This document shows, one piece after another, positions 21,341 to 47,189 of a stretch of DNA of 64,000 bases. How positions within the stretch are numbered: the first letter of the stretch is position 1; each line of letters begins with the position of its first letter. The stretch is from the NCBI GenBank assembly GCA_001662655.1, contig KV460210.1. The stretch is one strand, 5' to 3'. The notes under the pieces were generated by a model. That model saw nothing but the letters and a program-made list of their open reading frames with translations, did no database searches and was not told where the DNA came from. Made by a program: the position numbers and the translations under genes. Source of the DNA: Pseudogymnoascus verrucosus. Lineage: Eukaryota.

Positions 21341-22652
21341 ATGGCGCCCATCAAAGTCGGAATCGTGGGCTACGGTTTTGCAGCCAAGAACTTCCATATC
21401 CCTTTCATTTCCGCCATTCCTGACTACGAAATAATCGCTATTTTGCAGAGAGCGGAGGCCCCAGCCAATCCTGAGTTATCTCCTAAGGGTTCCCATTGCA
21501 CTGTCGATTTTCCAGGAATCAAGCACTATAGATCTGCAGACGACTTCTTCGCCGATTCAGAAATCGCTTTTGTCGTAGTAGCTACGCAGACTGATACGCA
21601 TGCCTTGTTTGGGGAGATGGCGCTGACGGCCGGAAAGCACGGTACAGCGACTACATTTAACCCGCATGCGATGAGCTAATGTAACCACCAGTCATAATTG
21701 ATAAGCCTTTTGCAGAGTCAGCCGAGGAAGCAGACAAGATCATAGCCCTTGCTGAGAAGAAATCATTACTTCTTACCTGCTATCAAAACAGAAGATGGGT
21801 ATGATTAAGTCTTCTCCGCATTTGTTTTTAGAGACTCACTTATTTTTGATTAGGATGGTGGCTTTCAAACGTTGCGGAAGCTTATTAAAGAAGACGCATT
21901 AGGGGATATCAAGGAAGCAGAGATTCACTACGACTTCGAGTCGCCATCATGGATTTCTCAATTCCCTGCGAAGTATACGCCTGGAGCTGGGATGGCGTAT
22001 GGGCTAGGTGAGTGAGATTGCAGCGCCTTTAAATTAGCGTTTCGCTATGAAGATGGTCTTGACAAACGTATTTGTAGGAACGCACAGCATTGATCAGGCA
22101 TTGGTCTTATTTGGCCTGCCCAAATCAGTCACAGGTTTCTTCCGCGTCCAGCGCGGCATGGAGAGCGAAGTAGAGGACTCCTTCACCATAGTCATGCAGT
22201 ACGACGGACCACAGAAGGAGCTACTTGTAACAGTGAAGACATCTGTGGTAACACCAATGGCGCAGCAGCTTAAATTTCTCGTGCGCGGCACTAAAGGCTC
22301 CTTTATTAAGTTTCAGAATCGGAGTACGTGCCCACAAGAAGAGCAGATTGCTCTGGGAGCAAAACCTCTCGACGAAGGTTTTGGTTCCGAGCCAGAGCAA
22401 TTCCAAGGCATTCTCACGACATATGACAGTTTCGATAGTCAGGTCCAGACACTTGACAAGGAGACAAACAAGTATACTGGTAGGTATCCTACGATTACAG
22501 GTCGATGGCTAGGAATATACGAGAATGTTGCAGATGCCATCAATGGAAAGGGCGATTTAGAAGTCAAGCCAAAGCAATCGAGAGATGTGCTGCGTATTAT
22601 TGAGCTTGCAAGGGAGTCACACAACAAGGGTGTTGCAGTGCCATGGGCATGA
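21341..22652 (+). CDS. Gfo/Idh/MocA oxidoreductase (IolW/YdgJ-like), 4 exons
   Basis: IKVGIVGYG Rossmann start, GKH/VIIDKPF, YQNRRWD and LGTHSIDQALVLFG. Introns at about 21642-21690, 21799-21853 and 22008-22077. Confidence 0.9.
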
Positions 22653-22724
22653 ACGTTTTCACGGCCTGTTGGAATTCTTGGGAGTTATTTTGAGAATGAA
22701 GCCAATCCGCAATCACCACCTTTA

Positions 22725-22879
22725 CTAATTTGCCCAGTCAATGCCTGCATACTTGAACTAGTAAAAGTACTAGACCCGTCGAAATATATGGAGATTCATA
22801 CCTACAAGTAATTTCATCTTTCCGTCCAAGCTTAAGCTGTGATATGACATCTTCCACATCGAGTTGCCTTTTCTGCCAT
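22725..22879 (-). pseudogene. Probable N-terminal relic of a cytosolic GH3 beta-glucosidase
   Basis: With two +1 frameshifts it reads MAEK-QLDVEDVISQL-SLDGKMKLLVG, then a GTATGA...CAG intron, then IDWAN*. This resembles the (L/I)DVE..(I/L)..L.L.EK..L..G.DFW N-terminus I recall for signal-less fungal GH3 enzymes. Nothing further survives. Confidence 0.45.
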
Positions 22880-23198
22880 ACTGACGATTGCCGTGACAAG
22901 TTGATGAGAAAGATGCCAAGGAATAGGAGAGGAATCGGCAACGGATAATATATGTGGTTGTTCGAAATCTTGGGAGTGGAGGCTTAATCTTGAAGTGGTC
23001 TCAACCTGATGGCTTGAGGGTCTAAGGCAGCCGCCCGCGGCCCTGCCATAGCTGCCATACTCACCCCTACTATTTGGGGTGGGAAACCTCATTCTTGCTC
23101 CAGAGACTCTCCTAAAGCTCGAAACCTCTGATGATCATGACTCACACCGAGCGCAGAATATCGGGACTTAACTTGAATGAATCACAACAAGCCCTGAG

Positions 23199-23231
23199 GT
23201 GCGGGGTATTGGCCATGGACGAACCCCGCAC
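23199..23231. promoter_or_regulatory. Inverted pair of CreA/Mig1-type sites
   Basis: Perfect 9-bp inverted repeat GTGCGGGGT (23199-23207) ... ACCCCGCAC (23223-23231); each arm contains SYGGRG. Confidence 0.5.
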
Positions 23232-23458
23232 GTAGCCCACAGGCGCTAGAACGGGGAATATGGAGCATAATCCCCGATGAGTACTGCCAGCTCAACTTCC
23301 AACTTCGACACTCCCCACCGGGTACGGCGGATAAATTGACAGCGAGGCTGAATAAAATAAGACTCCTTCTCGCTTTAATACTTCGACTCTGTTTATGTGT
23401 GTGTTCTCACAACCCATCTATTTTCCATATTTCAATTATTTCAATACTACATGCCACA

Positions 23459-24523
23459 ATGACTTCCGTCCCAACCATTCGCTGGGGGATAATTGGTACG
23501 GGCTGGATCTCAACTGAGGTTGTCAAGGACTTGATTCTCGAACGCCCCGACGCAAAAGCTGTGCATGTAATCCAAGCCATTGGCTGCTCTTCCCTTTCCA
23601 AAGGCCAAGCGTTTGCTAAGTCCACGATTCCGCATCTATCGCCTACAGTCTATGGCTCTTATGCCGAGTGTTACGCTGATCCAAAAGTCGACCTCATTTA
23701 TATCGGAACTCCTCACGCATTCCATAAGGATAATTGTCTCGAAGCCATCCAACATGGGAAGCATATCTTATGCGAGAAGGCTTTCACGTTGAACGCACGA
23801 GAGGCACGCGAGGTATTTGCTGCGGCAAAGGCCAAAGGCGTCTTTATTATGGAGGCTATGTGGACGCGTTTCTTTCCGCTTATGCAGACCTTACAACGGC
23901 TGCTGCATGATGAGAAGATCATTGGTGATATTCTACGGGTATTTGCGGACTTTGGCCTCAACATGGATGTCAAATCTTTAGGGCCCGAATCCCGTTTGAA
24001 GAACAAAGCGCTGGGGGCTGGGTCTTTGCTCGATGTTGGTATTTATAGCTTAACATGGGGACTGCTATGCTTGGATCGAAATATTGCGGACAAGGCGGAG
24101 AAGCCAAAGGTCGTGTCCCTACTGAGTCTCGAAGAGGGTGTTGATATGACTTCATCATTTCTACTGTTGTACCCTTCGACAGGGAGGCAAGGAATCCTCA
24201 CTTCCACCATGAGTGTAAAGTCCGATGAAACATTCGCACGAATTGAAGGCAGCAAAGGAACCATCTTTGTTGAGGGCCCCGGAACTTCAATCCCATCGAG
24301 GTTTAAGTACGTCCCAAATAATAAAGATGAAAAGGAGAAGGTATTTGAGTTTGAGAAGCCGGGCGCGGGATATTATTACGAGGCGGATGCTGTTGCCATG
24401 GATATCCAAGCGGGGAGGACGGAAAATGCGGTCATGCCGTGGGCTGAGACAATCAGAGTTATGGAGATTATGGATGACATTCGGTATACAAACGGAGCGT
24501 TATTCCCTCAGGACGCAGAATAG
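23459..24523 (+). CDS. Gfo/Idh/MocA oxidoreductase (dihydrodiol dehydrogenase / D-xylose 1-dehydrogenase-like), intronless
   Basis: IRWGIIGTGWIS, YIGTPHAFH, KHILCEKAF, MEAMWTRFFP and GAGSLLDVGIY motifs; start MTSVPT at 23459. Confidence 0.92.
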   Translation: MTSVPTIRWGIIGTGWISTEVVKDLILERPDAKAVHVIQAIGCSSLSKGQAFAKSTIPHLSPTVYGSYAECYADPKVDLIYIGTPHAFHKDNCLEAIQHGKHILCEKAFTLNAREAREVFAAAKAKGVFIMEAMWTRFFPLMQTLQRLLHDEKIIGDILRVFADFGLNMDVKSLGPESRLKNKALGAGSLLDVGIYSLTWGLLCLDRNIADKAEKPKVVSLLSLEEGVDMTSSFLLLYPSTGRQGILTSTMSVKSDETFARIEGSKGTIFVEGPGTSIPSRFKYVPNNKDEKEKVFEFEKPGAGYYYEADAVAMDIQAGRTENAVMPWAETIRVMEIMDDIRYTNGALFPQDAE

Positions 24524-24722
24524 TTAGGATGAATGGTCTTTCTCATGAAGTAGCCGGAGCATCGATCTGCGTGTCATGGTGATTAGGTTATTATTAGATA
24601 ATTATACTGAAATTGTGCATAGCTATCAGACGGGTTCGGGAGACAGTGTCGCGCAAAGTGAGAGTTTTGTTAATAAGTATCATTAATAATAATACAGATT
24701 GATAGGGTTCCACCATTGCGAG

Positions 24723-27346
24723 TCAGTCATCTAAGTCTCCCCAGTATTCTTTGAGATCGTCAACCCTCCACTTTGTATCCCAGCCTGTCTCCTTCTCAAT
24801 CCGTTCCAGGATTCTCAAAATCGCAGAATGCTCGCTTGGATGGCTCATTACTTTTCCAGCTATCCACAGAGGTTGCACAGAGTTCGTCCAGGAGCCGTGG
24901 TGTGTATTTGACTCCGAAATAGCACAGATCTGCCGTGCGTGCCAGAGGATTGAACGCTAGAAAGAACCACACCGTATAATTAGCGACTGGTATAAATGAA
25001 AGAGTTGGACTTAATATAGACTGAATGAACTTACCGACTGTTTCCCAAGGTTTATACCTTTCGGTTTTACTTGAAGCATCATTAGTGTTGAGGTGTGGTA
25101 TAATTGATTTCCAGAGACTGCCAGATATTAGATTATAAAAATCGAGTCTTTGATTTCACATACTTGCTGAGCCGTTCCCATACAAGACTGTCGGAAATGG
25201 GTTTTGGAAGTCTTCTGCTACTACTGGAATGGCTAGAAGAGGCTTCATTTCTTCGGGTCTGTCAGTATACCAACTTTGTAGGATATCATACAACTTTTGC
25301 CATCGTAGAGCATAGCCATCTTGTTGGTTTTGCGGGCGTGATATATCAAAGTGGCTGGTCCTGTTAGAATTTAACAAGTGCAGAACGCTGGCGCAAATGA
25401 AGACTGAATAATTTGCCCAAACATCAAAAGTGTTCGATGGGTTGCGGAAGAGGTTGTGATCTTCCCATGCATCTCTACCGGAAGTCCAACGGTTAAGAGG
25501 AATAAGAGTTTCTTCTTGTGAGATTAGACCCCCACAGACATCTGTAATTAGAGTAGTTAGTAACTTATTAGACTGAATTAGAGCCGCGAAATACATACCC
25601 ATTCTAGCAAAGCACCAGAAAAGAGCCTGCTCAACCTCACCCACAAAGCCATGGATACGAATGGCTTCTATCAAATTTGCACAACCATCTAAGTGCCGCC
25701 TCCATTCCTTTGGAGAACCTTGTATTATTAGTCACAGCATCATTTTAGGTCAACAGTTACCTACAGCTCATCATCTCTAAAACGCATAGAATTACACAAG
25801 AAGCCATAACTTCTGTATTTCTGGTGTGAAGCTCTGGTAACAGGAGGTGTATTGCCTCCTGATATAAAGCAAGGCTCTCCGATGAGGGCAATAAGGGGTT
25901 TTTTCTTTCCAATTGTCGAGCTGACAATGCCAATATTGAATATTTAAGCTGTGGTGATGATTTTGCCATTATCGGGAGTTTGAACTCAAAATGGCGCTGA
26001 TTGTCGAACTTGTCAAGCTGAGCAGAGTTAGCAAACAGAGTATATTGTCTCTATTAATAATGATAGCGGATAAAGAACAAAACAAATCGGATTTAATAAT
26101 CGCGGACCTACCCATGGGGCCAATTCATCAATGTAGTTTTTCCATAATATATACTCGCGATTGGGCGTAAGTTCAGGTGGCTTATGAGTTTCGGAATACG
26201 ACAAGCAATTATCGTTGGGTAGACCATCTCCCTGCGGTCGTACCGTTTCCTGTGAGAATGGTCCTGGGTTTGGCTGAGATTCCGGAGTTCCAGACCTAGT
26301 GGCAGCGTTTGATCTTGCTGTATGTATTATGTGATTGCGAAGGGTAGTATGTAATTCCCGGTACGCTGAACCAGGAAGAAAAATGCCTTGAGATGAATCA
26401 AAGAGCTGGTTGTCAAAAATCGGCTCGTTGAAAATCCTCTGTCGGGCTTGTGGGTGCATGTTGTCATTCTCCGGTTGTCTGATATTGATGGGCAATGGTT
26501 CTTGATCTTGTTGAGAGTCTGGATGTCGGGTGTACCTCAACGCAAGTAATTCGGCTGCCACTTCTCCAGTGTGGAATATAGGGTCTGCTTCTGACAGGTT
26601 ACTGTGTTGTATATCACTATACATTGGCTGTGACTGAGGTGTTGAGCCATGAATAGTTGCATGTTCATGATTCGGAGTAAGTTCCGAATCAGACATTGTG
26701 TCCATGGGCATATAGCCATCTTCACATATTGCAAATGAAATGTTGTTATATGGGGATCTATGGAAGGAGTGTTGTGAGGTGGATGAATGAGCTCTATCTG
26801 TGCTTGCCATGTATTCGCTGCTTTGAGGCGTATCTTGATCTTGGTCTTTTGAAGGCGCATTATTTTGTTTGGCTTTTGATATCTCTGGCATAATATCTGG
26901 TATCTGAGTCTCTTGTTAGCAAAGAGCCTCTGAGAAAAGTATACGCTGGTTTAAGATCTAACAGACGCCATATTGCTAGAGGTATTTTCTAATACTAACA
27001 GGATGTCTTATAGACGGGTTCTCTATAGCCAGGCTATTTGGATGGACAGCTTTAAATCTAATATCTGTGCCCCATGCACACAATTCTCGGCGATGGTGAC
27101 AACTGTCACATTTCGGTCTTCTTTCATCACCTAAAAATATACTTTAGATTTAGATTTCTAGATTAATAGGCTCATTGTGCGTCTACCACAGAATCACTCA
27201 CATTTTTTGTGTCGTCGGCGACAGTTGACGCAGCCGGTTCTTGTCCGCCTTGGCTGATTTGGACGACTCCGAACGGAGCTTTCACCTTGTGGCACAATTC
27301 CTTCCGAGACTGGTTCGGGCCGAGTCTGCAATTCTATAATCTCCAT
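24723..27346 (-). CDS. Zn(II)2Cys6 transcription factor with C-terminal fungal TF domain
   Basis: RTRTGCVNCRRRHKKC/DERRPKCDSCHHRRELCAW binuclear cluster split by an intron. Later exons include APWLDKFD..LKYSILALSARQ..WTNSVQPLWIAG..LERIEKETGW..DLKEYWG. Confidence 0.9.
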
Positions 27347-27811
27347 GGCAAATAATATGCCATAGGTGAGTTCGCCAGGGTTTTTTTTAGGGTAGACCAA
27401 CGGAACAAATTAGTTCACGCATAAAGATTCACATATGGCGGGGAACGGCAGGAAGCCTGGGAGTTGGCGGCAAAAAGTGCCAGTTATGGACTAGTTCCGT
27501 CTAGTGGATTCCTGGCTTGTACCTCGACGTCTCGAGGCCCCCGTCGTCAACTTTAATTGCCGACCACTTCTATTACCTAATTGTCGGAACCAATCGTTCG
27601 TTCTACTGAAGTGGAATGAAAGGTTGGTTGTCATGATTAAGGTTAATTGCTTTCTTCTCACATAATCTTTAGTGTCTCAATCGAAGTAGGCTTCTTGAGA
27701 GATGGGCAAAAGTCATATTTTTGCTCCTTTCGGACTTTATGGAGGTATAGTATATAGTTAGGCGTCCATCTTATAAATATTTCTTCAGCTAGTCCAAATT
27801 TTGCATACCAA

Positions 27812-29859
27812 CTACAAAGCCTTGAGGTCGTCATGGCATACCTCTTGTTCTGAGATCTTGTCTCCATCTGTAGATCCGGCCTCGGGTGAATGCTCAGCAC
27901 CCGCAATAGAACCCATTGACGGATGCCAGTGAATTATGACCTTCTCTCCCGTGAATAGTTTGTCGATTTGCTCTAGTGAGAGATTCTGGGTCTCCGGATA
28001 GAAGAACCAGATCAGTGGGATGAAAAAGAAGTTGAAGACTGCGAAGTAGATGTATGTCTTCCATCCAATACTATTGATGCTCACGGGAGTAATCTCAACC
28101 ACAAGGAAGGTAAAAATCCCTAAAATGGAACATTAACATTCAATTTGCCGGAGAATAGCCGGATATGAAGAGAACTTACAGTTTGAAGCAGTTGCAAGAG
28201 AAGCGGCACGAGTACGAATTGCCAATGGTGCATACTCGGCCGGCACTGCATTTTATTAGGCAAGTTTCAAAACATTAAGATATAGAGGAACTTACAGAGC
28301 CAAGGGATCGCTAGTAATCCTACGGCGAAGAAAAAATTAAATAGAAACAGCATCACAATTGCAACAACTCCACCAGCTTTGGTACCCGAAGATACAGTTC
28401 CGGCAAGTATGGCCATGCAAGCACACTGACCAGCAGCTGCGAAAAGCATGAGCTTTCGTCGGCCGAGGCTGATTGAGCGTCAGTATTCACTTTAATTTAA
28501 TACCACTGGGAATTCTTACCGGTCTATAATCCATATTGGGATTAATGACGAGAAAAAGTATGCGACCCCTGTATATGTGAGCAGAAATTATCATTGGATC
28601 AAATCCATTACTCACCATTGAAGCCGGCAAGTAATAGGGCTAGATTGTGTGAAAGTTTGACAGAGTTTTCGAAGATTACAGGAGCATACTATTTCCTGTT
28701 AGTAAAAGAGCAAAAGAGGCACACCAGATCACAATAGCTTTGACTCACGTAAGTGATGAGGTTGATGCCAGACAGTTGTTGCATGAATTGTCCGCCGATA
28801 CCAAGAAGAACTCTGTGGCGAAACTTTTGTGGTCCGTTCTTTAGCAACGCTGTCTTGCTACGCCCCTCAGTAGCCGCTCTTTCTTCGTTGACGGCATTCT
28901 GGATTTCCAAAATTTGTCTGTTGATGGCAGGATCTGATTCAGTTATTGAGTTTGGGTCCATCTCCAATGCCCATAGGATATGGCGTGCTTCGCTGTGTCT
29001 TTCGTGCGCAATGAGCTGGGAAGTTTGTCAGTAAACTCTGGTCTTATTGTAGCAGAGCAGTAGAATACATACCCATCTGGGGGATTCGGGAAGAAACAGT
29101 ATGCCAGCAAAGGTTACAACTGCGAAAACAATCTGCAGAGCAAGGGGAACTCGGAATTGTGCACCACTGCTGACGTAGCTGAATCCGTAGTCTACCCAAT
29201 AAGCAGTCATGACCCCGAAGATGTTGATAGCCAACTCAATTGCCAGCTAAGATATATGTCAGTAGTATTCTCGAGATGTGATCAAATATAAATTACCCCC
29301 TTGCCACGCTTTTTTGCTTGCATCAATTCAGAATGCCACACAGGGATCGTACTTGTGTTCATCCCATTTCCAAGTCCTGCAACAATCCGGCCAACGATCA
29401 TGTGTGGGATGGTATATGCGGATGCCTGAAGCGCTGCCCCAATGCTGAGCACGATACATCCAAGCATGATACAGTTTCTTCGTCCCAACCGTTCACCAAA
29501 CATGAAGCAGAATATTGCTCCAAAGAAACAACCCTCCAAAAAATGTTAGCCCGCTGCAACATTAGATTTAAGAAGAGCACTCATACGATTTCGTAGATAG
29601 CAACGACTGTGCCTTGAAGAGATGAGCTTCCAGTACCGCTTGGAGTAGTGTCAATTTCCGGGAATTGCTTTATAAAAGCGGCTCCTGACAATAGCCCAGA
29701 CATTACTCCCTGGTCATAGCCAAATCTGAAAATCTAGTCAGTAACAGTATTCGCAATATGAGCGTGTGTGCCAAAGTGATTATGGACATACAAGAGAAAG
29801 CCGCAACCAGCAGTGGCTGTGATAGCCCATGACAGAGGACGACCAGTAAGGACCGTCAT
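27812..29859 (-). CDS. Sugar porter family MFS transporter (STL1-like sugar/polyol:H+ symporter), multi-intron
   Basis: FGYDQGVMSG, YEIGCFFGA, GERLGRR, GRIVAGLGNG, PESPRW, QQLSGINLITYY and FFYPET motifs across many short exons. Confidence 0.92.
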
Positions 29860-29985
29860 AGTAGCAACGGCTTGTTTTAGATGTTTGTAATTAATGCTGA
29901 TTGAGATGCCAATACGAGGTTGAAAATGGCAGCGTTGCAGGATATATACAGTTTGTTACTCTCACCAGCATTCTTCTAAGGGATG

Positions 29986-30005
29986 ACTGTGGGGTAACTG
30001 TGGGG
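29986..30005. promoter_or_regulatory. Tandem CreA-type sites (ACTGTGGGG x2) in the transporter/SDR divergent promoter
   Basis: GTGGGG at 29989-29994 and 30000-30005 within a 9-bp direct repeat, about 130 nt upstream of the transporter ATG. Confidence 0.4.
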
Positions 30006-30726
30006 CCCCGGAATCCAGTACGGCCAGTCTAGCACGACTAGGGTAGCCATCATTCTTCACATTTCACCTTGTACTCATTATAGCATGTCAGTATAGAGGC
30101 GCATGGGAATAGTTGTTGCCGATCCTAGCATTTACAGCGATGTCCAAATGGAGTGCATCCCTCCTTAGACGACGAAAAATGGGGTCGTGTTGGCGGTAAC
30201 CGGAAAAGGAAAGTTTACACGCAGTCATGCTTTGGACCAGTAAAAGGGTCGCTTGCAACTGGGCCATCCTAGCACCTAGGGACTAGAATGCCTGCCATTT
30301 ATCGACCCCGATTTCTCCGCATCGTATCCCGACCTATCCCCACTCTCGGACACTCTCCGCGCACCGAATAACAACTTCTTTCTCATCGCGTGGTTTGTCG
30401 CCTGGCGTGGGAAGAAAATCGCACTATTCGAAACCTTTACCATGACATCACGGAGAGGAGGGAGTTTGTTCCGCAGCGCGTAATCATGTACGTATAACTG
30501 CAGTCTTGCGGGTCAGTGGATACAGCGGATCTAGCAGTTCACTCTAGATGGGTCGTATCTATGCACTCTCACACTCTCACTTGAACCTAATAATGGCTGC
30601 CCTTCGTTCACATTTTAAACATCACAATTCCTTTCTTCATCTCTTCTCAACTTCAACATCATTGCCCAAAATATATTCAATTTTCTTCTCTTCCAATACT
30701 CCATTCTTCGTCGTCACATCTTCACA

Positions 30727-31705
30727 ATGGGCTCTATATCCATCAGTCCCGATACGGCGGTGCCCGCGCATATCCTAGAATCCAGGCAAACGCCAGCCAA
30801 TGCGGCCCTTTTCTCGCTGAGCGGGAAAACGGTCATTATTACAGGCGGAGGCAGAGGCTTGGGCATAGTTCTAGCCGCTGCTGTTCTCGAGGCCGGTGGC
30901 TGCGCAGCTTGCATCGACATTCTGCCCGCACCCTCGGGCGCCGAATGGAATGATCTCCAGGTTATCGCTAAGAAGTCCAACTTGCGCGCTACCTACCACA
31001 AATGTGACATCACGACAGAATCAGAGCTCTCGGAATGTTTCGATCAGATTGCCGCAGAAGGCACTCGCAATGGAGCGCCGTTGGGGGGGACAATTGCCTG
31101 TGCAGGGATCCAGCAGAAGATCCCCGCTGTTGATTACCCAGCTGATAGCTTCAGGAGAATTATGGATGTGAATGTCACTGGAACATTCTTGACCATCAAG
31201 CATTCGGCCAGGATTTTCATGGCGGAGCGCACAAAGGGGAGTATTGTCATGATTGCTTCCATGTCCGGCCAGGTTGCAAACAGGGTCAGTTTTCTTCTAA
31301 GGATTTCTCTGCATTGAAGAGGGCTAACTTCTGTAAAGGGCTTAACTTGCACAGCTTACAATACCTCAAAAGCTGCAGTTCAACAGATGTGCAGGTCGGT
31401 TGCTCAAGAATGGGGTCAGTTTGGTATAAGGGTCAACACACTATCACCTGGCGTAAGCTCATCTCGATCCCCATTTTTGGATAAGCCACTAATTAAATAA
31501 ACAGTATATCCGAACAGCCATGACTGACGAACTCCTCACCGCTGAGCCAGAAGTTGAGAAGACGTGGATGGCAGGCGCTCTATTAGGCAGACTTGGAACA
31601 CCAGAGGATTTCAAGGCTCCGGCGGTGTTCCTGTTGGCAGATGGGAGTTCTTTCATGACAGGGGCAGACTTGCGAGTAGACGGAGGGCACTGCGCTTCAG
31701 CTTAA
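30727..31705 (+). CDS. Short-chain dehydrogenase/reductase, polyol dehydrogenase-like (D-arabinitol dehydrogenase / sorbose or L-xylulose reductase group), 3 exons
   Basis: TGGGRGLG cofactor motif, IASMSG, catalytic YNTSK, IRVNTLSPGY and FMTGADLRVDGG. Confidence 0.92.
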
Positions 31706-32021
31706 TATACCGCGATTGATATAAGAAATAAAAATTAGAATTAAATGTTCCTTGTGGATATCTGTTTCCATTTGCTCTCTGCTATTAATCACTTATGAAA
31801 ATTATTATCAACTCTGTTTATATACTCTCAAATAACAATTCCTGGCTACTTACATTATCAATTAGACGATTCGACTGCCTGGAAACGAAATTTAACTCTT
31901 CATTATTCTATCATTTTTCCTTTTTATTTATTACCAACTTAAAACCCTCATAAACATTTTTGCATTGTAATTAATTGATTATTTTATTATACCGTTTAAG
32001 CGATTGCTTTTAACAAACAGC

Positions 32022-34117
32022 CTATTGAGAGATTATGCGCTCATCTTTCAAGCCCTCTAGTATTCCCTGGAGCACACTAACAACTCCCATCGCACCTGGA
32101 TCTGGAATACCTCCTTCCACCTCAAATATTTCCTTGCCCACGTAGCTCGCCCTTCCCAAAACGGCATCTAATTTCCGTGTCGCTTCGGCCCCGTTTCTGG
32201 CTTCCATGACTGCGGCCTCCAGGCTGCTACCGCTAGCGAAAGCCTCTGTAAATGGGATCAACGCATCCATCAATGTCTTATGTCCCTTCCTCGCAGACGT
32301 ATAGCGACAGAGCTGAGCAACTCCTGAGTTTAGAGCTAGTCGAATACGCATGCTTAAGAATCCGGGGTCACTGCCGTCAAAGGGTGATGACAGATGGTTA
32401 GTCACTGCGTTGAAGAAAATTGCATATATGGCGCCCGAGGTTCCTCCCATGGATGATTCAATTGTGTTGGATATTACCCTGAATATAGAGACAATGTCCA
32501 TAGGGGCCTCTGACGAAGTCTGTAAAAGTGCAGCGCAGACGGCTAATATCAACAAGTCAGAATATGCAAATGGAAAGTTTATAAGTTTTGGACTTGCTTA
32601 CATTTTACACCCTTGAGTAGCGTCTCTCCACAATCCCCATCTCCAGCAATAGTATCGTATCTTGTGATCATTGGCTCATCTGTCACGACAGATTTTAGAA
32701 CAAAGCCGAGCAAGGTATGGAGTATTTCGGTGCCTATCAAATCTTCTTTCTATTCGTCAGTACTTTAATTTAAGAAAGATTTAGACGAGAAGTTCTTACC
32801 TTGAATCGCGTACTCGATATGAATTGGTGATGCCTTTGCTAAGACAGAATCGTTCACGAGTCTCTGGTTCGTATTTTCTGCGATTCCCAAAGCAGGGCTT
32901 CCAGTTATGTTCGGCCAGGCAGGCGCGGTTGTCTGGTCGTTCAGAAGAGATTCTGTCAATGGGTCTAATTCCAGTATGGTAACTGAAAATCCAGGTCCAT
33001 TTAGCGATGAAACAAAAGTACCCACGAGCGTTCTTCGTATGTCGAAGCCAACTGCTTCCAGTTGGCCCATGACCTCGTTAGCAATAATGTGCAGCTCCAA
33101 AATACTTAAACCACCGAGGTTGTTTATCATGGTTGCGATTGGCTTTCCTTTGTCCAACTCTGATATCTTGAGAATCTCAAGCACATTTGCGACCGTCGAT
33201 GGCATCGATGGGATCTTTTCCCTCCTCGTCCCAGGTTCATTATGGATACCTTGTAAGATGTTAATAACTGCCTGTATGATATGTCTTTAGAGAGTAAAAT
33301 TACCCATTCCATATTCCAGAAGGTTGAACGGCAGGCTTTCTTGCTTCCCTCGCTTTGGTACACTGCATCGATCAAGGCTCACGCCTGCAGTAACCATGCG
33401 GTCTGAGACAGATTGTGCAACTTGGGTAACTTCTTCGAGGGATGAACTGGATAAATTAGCATTAGACGTTTGAACAAACTTGGACCGGACGAACGTACCC
33501 TCTACTCGCCATTGCGCCTGCTATCTTATGTACAAAGGCAACACCAGCGAGGCCTCGACGCCCTACAAGCTCATTGCCCTCCACCGAAACATCATCCCCA
33601 ACGAATACGACATTAACCTCCAATCCCTCCGATTTTGCTTTTTCAGCAGCAAGACCGAAGTTGAGTTTGTCTCCCGTGTAATTCTTGACGATCATGAGAA
33701 TCCTAGGCAGGATTTTGTCAGCGCGCGGTTTATTTCAGTTCGGATATTCACAGCTTTACCCTTTTGGCGACTTCAACGCTTTTAGGCCCGCTAAGACTTG
33801 AGAAGCCGATGGAGATGCGAATATGTCACCTGAAACGCAAACGTCAAGCATTCCACCTCCTAAGTAACCTGCGTGAGCTGGCTCATGTCCAGACCCGCCA
33901 CCAGATAGCAACAAGACTTTCTGTTGGTTTTGTTGATGATAAAGGACTGATACCAAATTAGTATTCGCTGACGACAGGCGAGCCTTCTAGCCTTTCGATG
34001 CATCTTACCTCTCTGCGATTCTATTAATCTGAGAGATCTGTCCTGGCGCAAGAAGCTCTTCAGAGCCTGGCCGACAGGATCCTCCACCGCATTTACGAAG
34101 TGCTTTCCTAGAGTCAT
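32022..34117 (-). CDS. Dihydroxyacetone kinase family (Dak1+Dak2 domain) kinase, cluster paralog, multi-intron
   Basis: MTLGKHF.., [62 protein letters not shown] and PDPGA motifs. Confidence 0.92.
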
Positions 34118-34922
34118 AATCGATCGACACTGGATAATAATTCTTGGATTGTAGAAAAAGCTTGCAGATCCTAAGGTCCAAGGTGTTGCCAATGATTCCG
34201 ACACCACGATGGAGTTCTTTCAAGGCCTTCTTCTACATTGTGCCCAGTCGATGGCATAGTCTTGAAAACATACTATGGGCGAGGCCCAGACTACGGCTAA
34301 AATTACTGATTATGGTTATTATGTGGCCAGAACATATAATCACTTGGGAAAGAAAAAAGGCGTTCGAAAGAAAATATAGAGACGGCAGGGGATTCACTTT
34401 CCTGGACGATGGGGTTGGTTGAATGGTGCGCCTTCAGACAGCTCCCGCATCTCCTATCTCTGGCCGACTTCAGCAACCGAACTTCAATAACATCTAGACC
34501 AATACCAGTGGATCGTGACACTCAAAAAACTGTCAGCGGATAGGAATGATTCGAGTAGATGGGAAAGATTGTGAATTCGGCCGTGTCTGTCGGCAGATCC
34601 TCGGACAGTGCGGGGAAATTGCCAGGCTGCGTGTATATATTCCATTTTAGGATAGCGCCACCCAACGCCAAGTTCTATACAACTCCACGAATCGCAGTCT
34701 AAACAATTATGATTGTACCAAATAGGTAATATTACTCGCTCTACGCGGCAGCATCTTGATCTTGCGTTATGGTAAGTCAGAGCAAAAGTAAGTTAGAGTA
34801 CCAAGGTTGCGGGCAAGATTTGATATACAAATTATTAGATTCTGCCCTGAAAAGGCTATATCAACCTTCAACCTTTGCGTGCTTTCGTTTTCTACTTCTC
34901 TATTACACTTTTTCCTATCACC

Positions 34923-37305
34923 ATGGCTCCATCGGCTGTTGTTAATAACGCCCCAGAGGTTTCTTCGAAGATGTTGACAAAGGCTGAGTTGAAGCTCGAT
35001 GGAGACCAGCAGCATGATATTGTGCTGCGGACGTTCCGCTGCCTCATTGCGGATCTGTGTGAGCAATTCAAGGGAGGCCATCCCGGGTAAGCTTTTTATT
35101 CGATTCTTGAATGAACATGATGTTGATGGGTTTTCAGCGGCGCAATGGGAATGGCAGCAATTGGAGTCGCATTATGGAAGTATGTTATGAAGTATTCTCC
35201 TACGAACCCGCTCTACTTCAACCGGGACCGCTTTGTCTTGTCAAATGGTAAGCCTTGAAAATCCGTATCTCAGGAAGCAATGGCTAACTCTCTTACAAGG
35301 TCATACTTGCCTGTTCCAATACGCATTCATGCATTTGGTAGGATACAAGAATATGACACTTGACCAGCTACGGTCGTATCATTCCTCGCGAACAGACTCC
35401 ATTTGCCCTGGGCACCCAGAGATCGAACATGAGGGCATCGAAGTTACCACAGGACCACTAGGACAGGGGATCGCAAACGCCGTTGGCATGGCTATGGCGT
35501 CCAAACACCTTGCCGCCACTTACAACAAACCCAACTATCCACTTGTCAACAACATGACATGGTGTATGATTGGAGACGCATGTCTTCAGGAAGGCGTAGC
35601 GCTCGAAGCAATTTCCCTCGCAGGCCATTGGAAACTGAACAATCTCTGCGTCATGTACGATAATAACCAGGTTACTTGCGATGGTTCTGTCGATTTGTGT
35701 AATAACGAGGACGTCAACGCAAAGATGGTTGCGTGCGGCTGGACCGTCATTGATGTGGAGAACGGCAATTATGATATCCGAAGCATCGTCAATGCTTTAG
35801 TCGCAGCAAGAGAGAGCAACGATAAGCCTACATTCATTAACATTCGCACAACAATAGGAATTGGTAGTAAATCGGCAGGAGATGCAAAGGCTCACGGCGC
35901 GGCTTTTGGACCTGAGGATGTTGCAAACATCAAGCGCAAATTCGGTATGGATGACACAAAGCATTTTAATATTACTGAAGAAGTATACGAATTCTTCCAA
36001 GATATCAAATCCAGAGGGCAGAAGCTTGAAAATGAGTGGGCTACTTTGCTTTCGGACTACTCTGAGGAGTTCCCAGATCTTCACTCCGAATTCAAGCTCA
36101 GGATTGCTGGTGAGATGACGAACGATTGGTCAAAATATATACCAGCAAAAGCCGATTTTCCCACCACCCCGACTGCTTCGAGAAAGTCGGCCGGACTCGT
36201 GTGCAACCCTCTCGCACAACATTTGAAGAACTTCATGGTGGGCACAGCCGACTTATCACCCTCAGTAAACATGACCTGGAAAGACAAGGTTGACTTCCAA
36301 CATGTAAGAATTTGACCACGCTTGACTGGCACTCTTTCTAACATCCCCGTAGCCTGATCTAAAAACCACTTGTGGAATAAATGGCGACTACACCGGTCGG
36401 TATATCCACTGGGGTATCCGGGAACATGCAATGGCGTCTATATCAAACGGTCTCGCTGCTTTCAACAAAGGAACAATCCTCCCAATCACATCCACCTTCT
36501 TCATGTTCTACATTGTAAGCTACACTACACAAACTCCGTCCGTCTTCACCGCTAACACAAATTTCTCTAGTACGCAGCCCCAGGCATCCGCATGGGAGCC
36601 CTCCAAGGCCTCCAGCAAATCCACATCGCAACCCACGACTCCATCGGCACCGGCGAAGACGGTCCCACCCACCAACCCATCGAACTAGCCTCTCTCTACC
36701 GCTCCATGCCCAACCTCCTTTACATCCGACCCTGCGATTCCGAAGAGACAGCCGGCGCCTTCATCTCCGCCCTCAACGCCAAATCCAGTCCCTCAATCAT
36801 CTCCCTCTCCCGCCAAAACCTCACCCAGTACCCTGCCTACTCCTCACGCGAAGGTGTTCAAAAGGGCGCCTACGTGTTTAAGGAGCAGGACGACGCGGAT
36901 GTGACGCTCATTGGCGTCGGGTCTGAAATGTGCTTTGCGGTCGATACGGCGAAGCTTCTTGAGTCGGAACACGGCGTTAAGGTCCGCATTGTTAGCTTCC
37001 CGTGTCAGAGGCTGTTTGAGATGCAGCCTGTCGAGTATAAGAGGGAGGTGCTGCAGTATCGCTCTAAGGCGCCGCGCGTGGTGATTGAAGCGTATTCGCC
37101 GCTTGGGTGGGAGCGGTATGCTGAAGCGGGGATATCTATGCATTCGTTTGGGCATTCGCTGCCGGGGCAGGATGCGTATAAATACTTTGGGTTTGAGGCT
37201 AAGAGTATTGCTCCGAAGGTGTTGGAGTTGGTTAATGATGTGAAGAGGGATGGGATTGAGAGTCTAAGGGGGGAGTTTAGGGATTTAAACCAGAAGGCTC
37301 ACTGA
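34923..37305 (+). CDS. Transketolase of the dihydroxyacetone synthase (formaldehyde transketolase) type, 5 exons
   Basis: [55 protein letters not shown] motif [11 protein letters not shown] and [16 protein letters not shown]. The GH.CLFQY and GHPEIE variants are those I associate with DAS rather than TKL1. Confidence 0.9.
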
Positions 37306-45368: not shown

Positions 45369-47189
45369 CTACGCGTCTCCTCCGTCCGTCTCTTCCTCTA
45401 TCCCCGCAAATCCAAGGAAAAACTCACTCAATCCGTAGGCTCCTGGGTCAGGCACGTCCTTGAACCCCTGTCCTCCAACATACACCGTCCTCCCCAAACT
45501 GGCCTCCATACCCCTCGTCCCCTCCGCCCCCTTCTTCGCGGCCTCCGCCGCCTTCTTCAAATCCCCCGTCTCACCAAGCGTAACCACAAACGGCTCCAAC
45601 GCATCCACCAACGTCCTATCTCCAGGCTTAGCAGGCGTATACCTCTCGAGCGCCAACAACGCCTCACTCAGCGCCTTGGCCCACACCTGCTCTGTCGCCA
45701 CACCCTTCCCCTGTCTCCTCAAGGCTGCTACCAGCGCGTTCAGGAAAATTGTGTAAAGCGCACCAGACGTCCCGTCCATGCTCGCCTCCACCACAGCCGC
45801 CACGGACCGCACATCAACCACGACGTCGCCGGAGGGCCGGGCACGCACCAGCATCGCCTGCACAGCCTCTGCACCACGCTTGAGTCCGATTCCGCAGTCC
45901 CCATCGCCGACGACAGTATCGTAGCGCGTGACACGTGGCTCAGCGGCGATTATACGCGCGAGGCCGGCGTTGAGGCGGTGCCGCGCGGAGACCTCGTCCA
46001 TGGTCAGTCCGGTGGGCTGAGCGGCGGAGGCGGTCTGGTGCGTCTTCTCGCGCGTGGCGGTATTATCTGCAGTCCAGGTTTTAGCGAGGATTGGGGCAGC
46101 CCAACCCGTAGCTTGGCTGGGAGCGTCAAGCAGGGAGAGGAGGGTAGGTGGGAGGCCGGTGGGAACGGTGTTGAGGAGCGTGATGCTAAAGCCTGAGCCG
46201 TTGAGGCTGGTCATATATGTCCCAGCGAGGATGCGACATGGCTCAATCTGGTAATTGCGTCGAAGTTGCGCAGCGACTTCGGTTGTGATGCCGCCCATTT
46301 CTAGGGGGCTCACGCCACCGAGGTTGTTGACCAAGAGGACAACTTCCTTGGAGTTGACCTTGAGATAGGCGCGGTCCTTGTCGCTCTGGTCGAGAAGTTG
46401 CTTTAACATCGTCTTGACCAGCTCTTCGATGGTGACGGCTAGGCGTGCAGAGCCAGCCTCGTTATGGATTCCCATCCCGACTTCGGTTTCTTCGTACTTC
46501 AAGCGGTCGGAGTCATTTTGGTCGACTACATCGCGGCCAGGAACATGGACGTGATCAAGACTGGCGCCAACGCTGACAAGATTCGAGGCCGTCAGGTTCG
46601 CAATCTAGTTTTTGTTAGCATTATCACCACCAAGGGGATAGCTAGTACATACCCTCGTCACATCCTCCAAGCTATAACCCAACTCCGCCAACGCGCCCGC
46701 AATCTTAACAACTAACACCGTCCCCGCAATTCCTCTTCTGCCCACCTTCCCGGCCTTTGCCCTTCCAACACCAACATCGTCTCCCACGACCACCATATCA
46801 ACCTTTACGCCCGCAGACTTGGCCTTCTCGACCGCCATCCCGAAATTCAGGACATCGCCCGTGTAATTCATGATGATGGCAAGTACGCCCTTGTCTGTGT
46901 CAACGCGCGTCACGATGCCAGCGCTGATCTGCTCCGCAGACGGCGAGGCGAAGATTGTGCCCGCGACAGACGCAGTGAGCAGGCCCTGGCCAACGAGCCC
47001 AGTGAAGGAGGGCTCATGGCCGGAGCCGCCACCAGAGACGAGAGAGACTTGGGAGGGGGCATCGGAGGGACGCAGGTAGACAATTTTGTGGTGCGAGTCG
47101 ACGGCGAGAGCGGGGTTGGTGAGGGAGGCCGCAAGTAGAGCGCTGTTGACGAGGTGGGTGGGGTCGTTGAAGAAGTGCTTGGTCGACAT
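45369..47189 (-). CDS. DAK1: Dihydroxyacetone kinase, canonical type, 2 exons
   Basis: [65 protein letters not shown] and PDPGA motifs. Confidence 0.93.

Follow-up and report, generated by a model that had tools for sequence, protein, structure and literature searches.

A conserved gene cluster with a polyol-type dehydrogenase, a DAK-family kinase and a dihydroxyacetone-synthase-like transketolase in Pseudogymnoascus verrucosus: a candidate catabolic route for a five-carbon polyol or sugar

In a window of 64,000 nucleotides from Pseudogymnoascus verrucosus (GenBank assembly GCA_001662655.1, contig KV460210.1; G000:C5:558001-622000 in our coordinates, G000 being the genome that carries the window), we found a five-gene core consisting of a sugar porter, a short-chain dehydrogenase/reductase (SDR), a Zn2Cys6 transcription factor (TF), a DAK-family kinase and a transketolase (TK) of the dihydroxyacetone synthase (DAS)-like type. 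This core is an old catabolic unit and is probably co-regulated. By the sequence features compared, it appears to work like a polyol-utilisation cluster and to stand outside the known erythritol, xylulose-monophosphate (XuMP) and bacterial apiose systems. Our preferred reading, for which we judge the chances evenly balanced, is that it encodes a cytosolic pathway, controlled by its regulator, through which a five-carbon polyol or the corresponding sugar is used.

The conservation of the core was followed by scanning metagenomes with an alignment of the kinase; the best 80 of 195 loci were kept, and 26 were placed in a kinase tree. A kinase of the window's clade was present in 4 of these 26 loci (L076, L064, L054 and L031). 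L076, an unrelated fungal contig of 12.3 kb, harbored all five core genes in an order differing from that of the window, with identities of 66% (transporter), 54% (kinase), 46% (TF), 68% (SDR) and 72% (TK). Transporter, kinase and TF occurred together in L064, L054 combined a TK and the kinase with a more distant transporter (38%), and L031 was too short to show neighbors. Copies of the sugar porter with 57–70% identity were found in L006, L036, L064 and L076, and the window TF was 43–49% identical to TFs in the same four loci and in the fused kinase-TF annotations P0029 and P0034. Gene models in which the kinase is fused to this same TF came from Fusarium (P0028, P0029) and Parathielavia (P0034), and the latter also holds the antisense of the SDR end.

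In annotated genomes, the kinase, SDR and TK genes lay 1–4 accessions apart across Leotio-, Dothideo-, Sordario- and Orbiliomycetes; these pairs were selected by matching names and thus show breadth, not frequency. Kinase and TK were 2–4 accessions apart in Lophium, in three Fusarium genomes and in Phlyctema, Aulographum and Leptodophora; in the last three, the SDR lay between them. SDR and TK were adjacent in Cadophora, Botryotinia and Arthrobotrys. By this spacing, SDR and TK formed the tightest pair and the kinase was the loosest member. The TK recorded for one Pseudogymnoascus assembly was on a different contig from its SDR. The synteny across Pezizomycotina for which an earlier note on this DNA proposed a search was found, as all five genes in L076 and as two- or three-gene subsets in four classes.

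Co-regulation is suggested by a motif that was searched for in seven intergenic regions of other clusters, with the window sequence excluded. The word GCGC-N7-TTCC occurred in 6/7 regions; in 60 shuffles, the top word covered 4 regions in 50 cases and 5 in the other 10. When a matrix was built from these sites, none of which lies in the window, the site in the transporter/SDR divergent promoter ranked first among 127,960 window positions; the site in the kinase/TK divergent promoter fits the looser pattern GCG(C/T)N7TTCC but lies outside the matrix's top 20. The motif was first noticed with the window regions included, and both the looser pattern and the chance figure for the twin sites are post hoc. 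The presence of a candidate site in both divergent promoters backs a co-inherited catabolic core, in line with the coherent cluster originally proposed. Upstream of the TF gene and of two neighboring Gfo/Idh/MocA oxidoreductase genes (ox1 and ox2), scores were at background level; for the two oxidoreductase genes, 154 and 180 sites elsewhere in the window did as well. A genome-wide scan gave 4 matches versus 1 in the control, the two extra sites being away from sugar genes, and 11 versus 8 with the looser pattern, which revealed no wider regulon; ungapped 7-9-mers were not enriched.

Stop-free spliced models with GT-AG introns were obtained for all seven contiguous genes between 21341 and 37305 (Table 1), except that one intron acceptor of the sugar porter is a weaker GAG. 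This agrees with the seven intact genes of the earlier note, and the families given there were corroborated by Pfam matches (for the Zn2Cys6 domain, by the spliced model and by fused homologues carrying PF00172), as was the head-to-head arrangement of the transporter/SDR and kinase/TK pairs by the gene models. The closest named proteins belonged to the genus Pseudogymnoascus; the kinase model was identical to database protein P0001, and the TK had the same length as P0073, with 100% identity across the exon searched.

Table 1. Genes and candidate regulator sites of the cluster and its immediate neighbors in the window.
Feature	Position	Strand	Description
Gfo/Idh/MocA oxidoreductase 1 (ox1), PRK11579-like	21341..22652	+	4 exons, 378 aa; neighbor, membership in cluster without evidence
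Gfo/Idh/MocA oxidoreductase 2 (ox2), dimeric dihydrodiol/D-xylose dehydrogenase-like	23459..24523	+	single exon, 354 aa; neighbor
Zn2Cys6 + Fungal_trans_2 TF	24723..27346	-	7 exons, 730 aa; core member, presumed regulator
Sugar porter (PF00083)	27812..29859	-	10 exons, 517 aa; core member
Candidate regulator site GCG(C/T)N7TTCC	30208..30224	-	transporter/SDR divergent promoter; top matrix score
Polyol-dehydrogenase-type SDR	30727..31705	+	3 exons, 290 aa; core member
DAK-family (Dak1+Dak2) ATP kinase	32022..34117	-	7 exons, 585 aa; frequent but variable member
Second candidate regulator site	34627..34643	+	kinase/TK divergent promoter; 14/17 bases identical to first site
DAS-like TK	34923..37305	+	5 exons, 724 aa; core member

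The SDR, in which the TGxxxGxG motif, the Ser and YxxxK are intact and whose closest solved structures were mannitol, polyol and galactitol dehydrogenases, is assigned to the polyol dehydrogenase group (mannitol/D-arabinitol/sorbose reductase). Asp64, invariant in 50/50 homologues, points to NAD(H) as the cofactor. The sugar porter presumably resembles Stl1-type glycerol/polyol symporters. A scan of prokaryote genomes with the SDR alignment was uninformative, with 80 loci at 27–40% identity, of which one had a DAK neighbor, two a partial TK match and one a Gfo gene.

With regard to the TK, comparison with yeast TKL1 showed that all catalytic residues of the fold (H30, H69, H103, D157, N187, H263, E418 and H481) and an intact phosphate site (R359, S386, H469 and R528) are present, and the predicted structure (pLDDT 91) had a TM score of ~0.9 to yeast TK. 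In a quick tree holding no named yeast DAS (the kinase and TK trees were both of this kind, with SH-aLRT support only), the protein was placed apart from housekeeping TKL1, on the DAS-like side, as the earlier DAS-type assignment had it. Many of its homologues carry the label 'dihydroxyacetone synthase'. Asp477, which we take to read the 2-hydroxyl of aldose acceptors, was present in the window TK and in 119/120 top homologues, in contrast to the Asn of a paralogue on C4 of the same genome; yeast DAS presumably also has Asn here. The C-terminus of the window TK is not a type 1 peroxisomal targeting signal (PTS1), which we assume to be a feature of methylotroph DAS, and PTS1-like ends were absent from the window proteins and were found in 1/92 full-length TKs, 0/30 kinases and 0/50 SDRs. 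The window TK thus appears to differ from methylotroph DAS by testable features, namely the lack of a peroxisomal signal and the retention of Asp477. Substitutions I191C, G158A and P34A flank the donor site clade-wide, the first two being present in 37/37 clade members. An ESM Atlas search returned generic transketolase clusters only, and a representative-sequence search yielded no nameable yeast DAS (2/150 matches checked by name).

The kinase contains both Dak1 and Dak2 domains, keeps the substrate residues His57, Asp110 and His217, and passes the TIGR02361 cut-off narrowly (576.8 versus 574.95). The phylogeny proposed earlier for this DAK-family enzyme placed it in its own 21-row clade across five classes (SH-aLRT 97), apart from DAK1-type, yeast-type and P0066-type kinases. 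As P0066 is presumably EYK1-like, the window kinase and Yarrowia EYK1 may belong to separate clades. An independent TK-DAK pairing was seen in another fungus (L049, L050 and L052), where a housekeeping-clade TK lies directly upstream of a DAK1-related kinase.

The genome carrying the window has five TK genes. That on C3 is housekeeping TKL1, and the other four, on the DAS-like side of the tree, all adjoin an SDR or a zinc polyol-type dehydrogenase; only the window's adjoins a sugar kinase. A paralogous cluster on C82 (65.5-77 kb; L006, L007), overlooked in the earlier note, encodes a transporter, SDR and TF with 57, 61 and 49% identity to those of the window. Here, porter and SDR are head-to-head, a PFK2/FBPase2-type gene with intact Walker A and RHG motifs is head-to-head with the DAS-like TK, a second porter is present, and motif sites occur in both promoters. 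At C5:400-415 kb (L008, L009; TK at 405 kb), a TktC/LadC-like cluster comprises a TK, a xylose-reductase-like aldo-keto reductase, a zinc dehydrogenase, an Sde182-like nucleoside hydrolase, a porter and two TFs, and its motif site scores above any window site; the aldose reductase makes this cluster, too, a candidate for the use of an aldose, for instance apiose. At C4:82-92 kb (L010, L011), the TK with Asn477 is head-to-head with an SDR, with a zinc dehydrogenase alongside. This TK shares a clade with FVEG_09977 of F. verticillioides, which is induced, together with its SDR neighbor, by benzoxazolinones, according to the available part of PMC10512309.

Isomerase genes of the RpiB and triosephosphate isomerase (TPI) types were not found in the window. 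Elsewhere in the genome, a single RpiB gene (C6:156-162 kb; L204, L205) is head-to-head with an arabinitol-dehydrogenase-like SDR, 55% identical over 136 aa to the window SDR, and one TPI was found on C10. We also take three genes, by their resemblance, to be separate glycerol kinase-, ribulokinase- and xylulokinase-like genes. On C17 (431-448 kb; L103, L104), a third DAK was observed with a DHDPS-family aldolase, an ApbA-like reductase, an SDR, a zinc dehydrogenase, a TF and a GMC oxidoreductase of alcohol-oxidase type, an arrangement suggestive of keto-deoxy sugar acid breakdown with a triose kinase as the last step.

In the preferred route, the porter would import a five-carbon polyol or its sugar, and the NAD-dependent SDR would oxidise the polyol to a C5 2-ketose. 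The TK would then transfer a two-carbon ketol unit to glyceraldehyde-3-phosphate, giving xylulose-5-phosphate and a free triose (dihydroxyacetone or D-glyceraldehyde), which the kinase would phosphorylate to regenerate the acceptor, the net conversion being ketose + ATP to xylulose-5-phosphate. Alternatively, the kinase might act first, forming apulose-4-phosphate, followed by release of dihydroxyacetone phosphate with the same net result. As dehydrogenase and TK are the constant pair, the TK probably acts on the ketose product of the dehydrogenase, and as the kinase is the most dispensable enzyme, cleavage first is favored; phosphorylation followed by cleavage, formerly proposed, is not supported as the sole order. 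A triose kinase is sensible where cleavage releases a three-carbon group, and this points to a C5 ketose, either xylulose (releasing glyceraldehyde) or apulose (releasing dihydroxyacetone). The reading is favored, too, by L036, whose copies of the transporter, TF and SDR accompany a kinase from the ordinary DAK1 clade and so suggest an ordinary DAK substrate, by the retained Asp477 and the clade-wide substitutions at the donor site, and by the numbering of A. niger TktC next to a LadA-like gene. Reactions, order and substrate are what we infer from the observed gene content, catalytic residues, synteny and shared motif.

As for the substrate, apiitol/apiose fits best and is named tentatively, because xylulose, ribulose and glycerol presumably have their own kinases in this genome; cleavage of apulose would leave dihydroxyacetone. 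The chemistry also fits D-arabitol or xylitol via D-xylulose, but a xylulokinase would then be duplicated. It is conceivable, though at a low probability, that this is a fungal oxidoreductive D-apiose/apiitol route, convergent with the bacterial one, in which a DAS-like TK cleaves the branched ketose apulose to dihydroxyacetone, and that mould 'dihydroxyacetone synthases' are a ketose-cleaving family whose members each have a polyol dehydrogenase as partner, the DAS-DAK pair of methylotrophs having been recruited from this family. Bacterial apiose catabolism reportedly uses an apiose isomerase, an apulose kinase of the FGGY type and a TK split into two chains, whereas in the window cluster an SDR and a DAK-family kinase accompany a single-chain TK and no FGGY gene is present; the cluster is therefore at most a functional analogue, alike in that apulose is proposed to undergo C2/C3 cleavage by its TK, yielding a triose and xylulose-5-phosphate. 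The existence of a bacterial D-apiose transketolase route is taken from Carter et al. 2018, as cited in the available part of PMC13753588.

Several points weigh against the preferred reading. The TK retains all of its phosphate-binding residues, at odds with a free-ketose donor, and free ketoses are usually poor TK donors. I191C is also found in the Asn477 clade and is thus not specific for a branched donor. The cluster has no linked glycosidase and no aldose reductase, so that a general reductase would have to act on apiose, and apiitol is rarely found free. The C82 cluster carries the PFK2-type gene in place of the kinase, and the proposed scheme has no need of it. Lastly, the kinase of L036 is on a long branch, and no TK match was found in that locus within ~10 kb on each side.

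The main rival, which we consider unlikely, is a tetritol route, in which erythritol or threitol would be converted to erythrulose, phosphorylated to erythrulose-4-phosphate by the DAK-family kinase (DerK/EYK1-like) and isomerised by the unlinked RpiB to erythrose-4-phosphate, a TK acceptor giving fructose-6-phosphate and triose phosphate. Asp477 and the phosphate sites suit erythrose-4-phosphate, the PFK2-type gene of C82 would match the fructose-6-phosphate output, and the genome does have one RpiB. However, no isomerase was found in the window cluster, L076, L064 or L036, only a single TPI was found in the genome, and RpiB is paired head-to-head with an SDR of its own; moreover, the route depends on the kinase, yet this is the variable member, and its last step is already within reach of the housekeeping TK. 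In favor of the route, erythrulose kinases of the DAK family occur together with an SDR and a Zn2Cys6 regulator in the erythritol cluster of Yarrowia lipolytica (EUF1, EYD1, EYK1, YALI0F01584 and YALI0F01628), which shares with the window the clustering of such a regulator, a polyol dehydrogenase and a DAK-family kinase; the available part of that source (PMC5992420) describes TPI-like and RpiB isomerases and mentions neither TK nor transporter, whereas the window cluster includes both and lacks isomerases.

It is improbable that all seven genes form a single pathway opening with oxidation by the Gfo/Idh/MocA enzymes. Contiguity speaks for it, as does the ox2 orthologue lying two locus tags from the SDR in 6/6 named Pseudogymnoascus members, a linkage confined to this genus. 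Nevertheless, homologues of ox1 and ox2 were present in 0/80 kinase loci, among them L036, which offers ~10 kb to either side (L076 and L064 end near the core), the motif is missing upstream of both genes, and no lactonase or dehydratase lies nearby. The cluster described earlier as self-contained therefore stands as a five-gene conserved core, with the two Gfo genes outside it and their place in the functional unit unsupported.

A glycerol/dihydroxyacetone route, with Stl1-type uptake, the SDR as glycerol dehydrogenase, a DAK and an ancillary TK, is very improbable: the porter is presumably Stl1-like and the kinase scores above the glycerone-kinase cut-off, but SDR and TK are the tightest pair and the kinase the loosest, and the genome has a presumed glycerol-kinase-like gene and two further DAKs.

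The weakest alternative, implied by database labels, is XuMP formaldehyde fixation, which resembles the cluster in pairing a DAS-like-clade TK with a DAK and could draw on the GMC gene of C17, but is hardly likely given the near absence of PTS1-like ends, the retained Asp477 (presumably Asn in yeast DAS), the lack of an oxidase in the cluster, and a transporter and polyol SDR that it leaves unexplained. No GMC/alcohol oxidase match was found within the window, as the earlier note stated; as an argument against methanol this is weak because of the C17 gene, but the preference expressed there for a sugar or polyol over methanol is supported. In the available part of PMC6231085, the DAS reaction of A. 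niger is described as assigned, with no assay cited: TktC (NRRL3_00895, numbered next to LadA-like NRRL3_00896) and NRRL3_10165 are listed there as assigned DAS enzymes only, with cluster function undescribed. They presumably belong with the window TK to one DAS-like TK group in Pezizomycotina. In the supplement part of PMC9781776 that was available, expression of NRRL3_10165 on eight sugars is given as NA, and AN8935 and AN8551 appear in an orthologue table only. In open full-text literature, including locus-tag queries and with paywalled papers outside coverage, we found no description of this cluster.

Regarding the surroundings, a second, ordinary DAK1-type gene (45369-47189, minus strand), overlooked in the earlier note, lies 11 kb from the cluster kinase, to which it is 41% identical; it belongs to a different clade and has housekeeping gene neighbors. 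The region 15-36 kb has a low GC content (0.41-0.52) between high-GC housekeeping genes, and GC climbs again in the 3' third of the TK gene. GC at third codon positions is 0.41-0.58 in the cluster versus 0.69-0.72 in three flanking genes. Horizontal transfer, considered because of this gap, was unsupported, as most of the sequences with which kinase and TK cluster come from other Leotiomycetes. Also within this low-GC region, four short open reading frames at 16.3-20.2 kb with signal-peptide-like starts and Cys-rich ends apparently form a small paralogous secreted-peptide family; the three that were scanned had no Pfam match. A GH3 relic, reported earlier as head-to-head with ox2, was rejected: the best match, with E 0.009 when 0.9 kb was searched, spanned ~15 residues and was backed by neither a Pfam match nor a DNA paralogue.

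Thousands of mould proteins with a 'dihydroxyacetone synthase'-type sequence sit in metabolic models as formaldehyde fixers by annotation alone. The cluster offers a testable alternative role for these DAS-like proteins, in the form of a five-gene unit with candidates for the regulator and its binding site. A TK that accepts free or branched ketoses would, if confirmed, be of interest for biocatalysis. If the substrate is apiose or apiitol, the cluster would explain what becomes in fungi of a sugar from plant cell walls, for which our searches found no fungal route, and may hint at the origin of methanol assimilation in yeasts.

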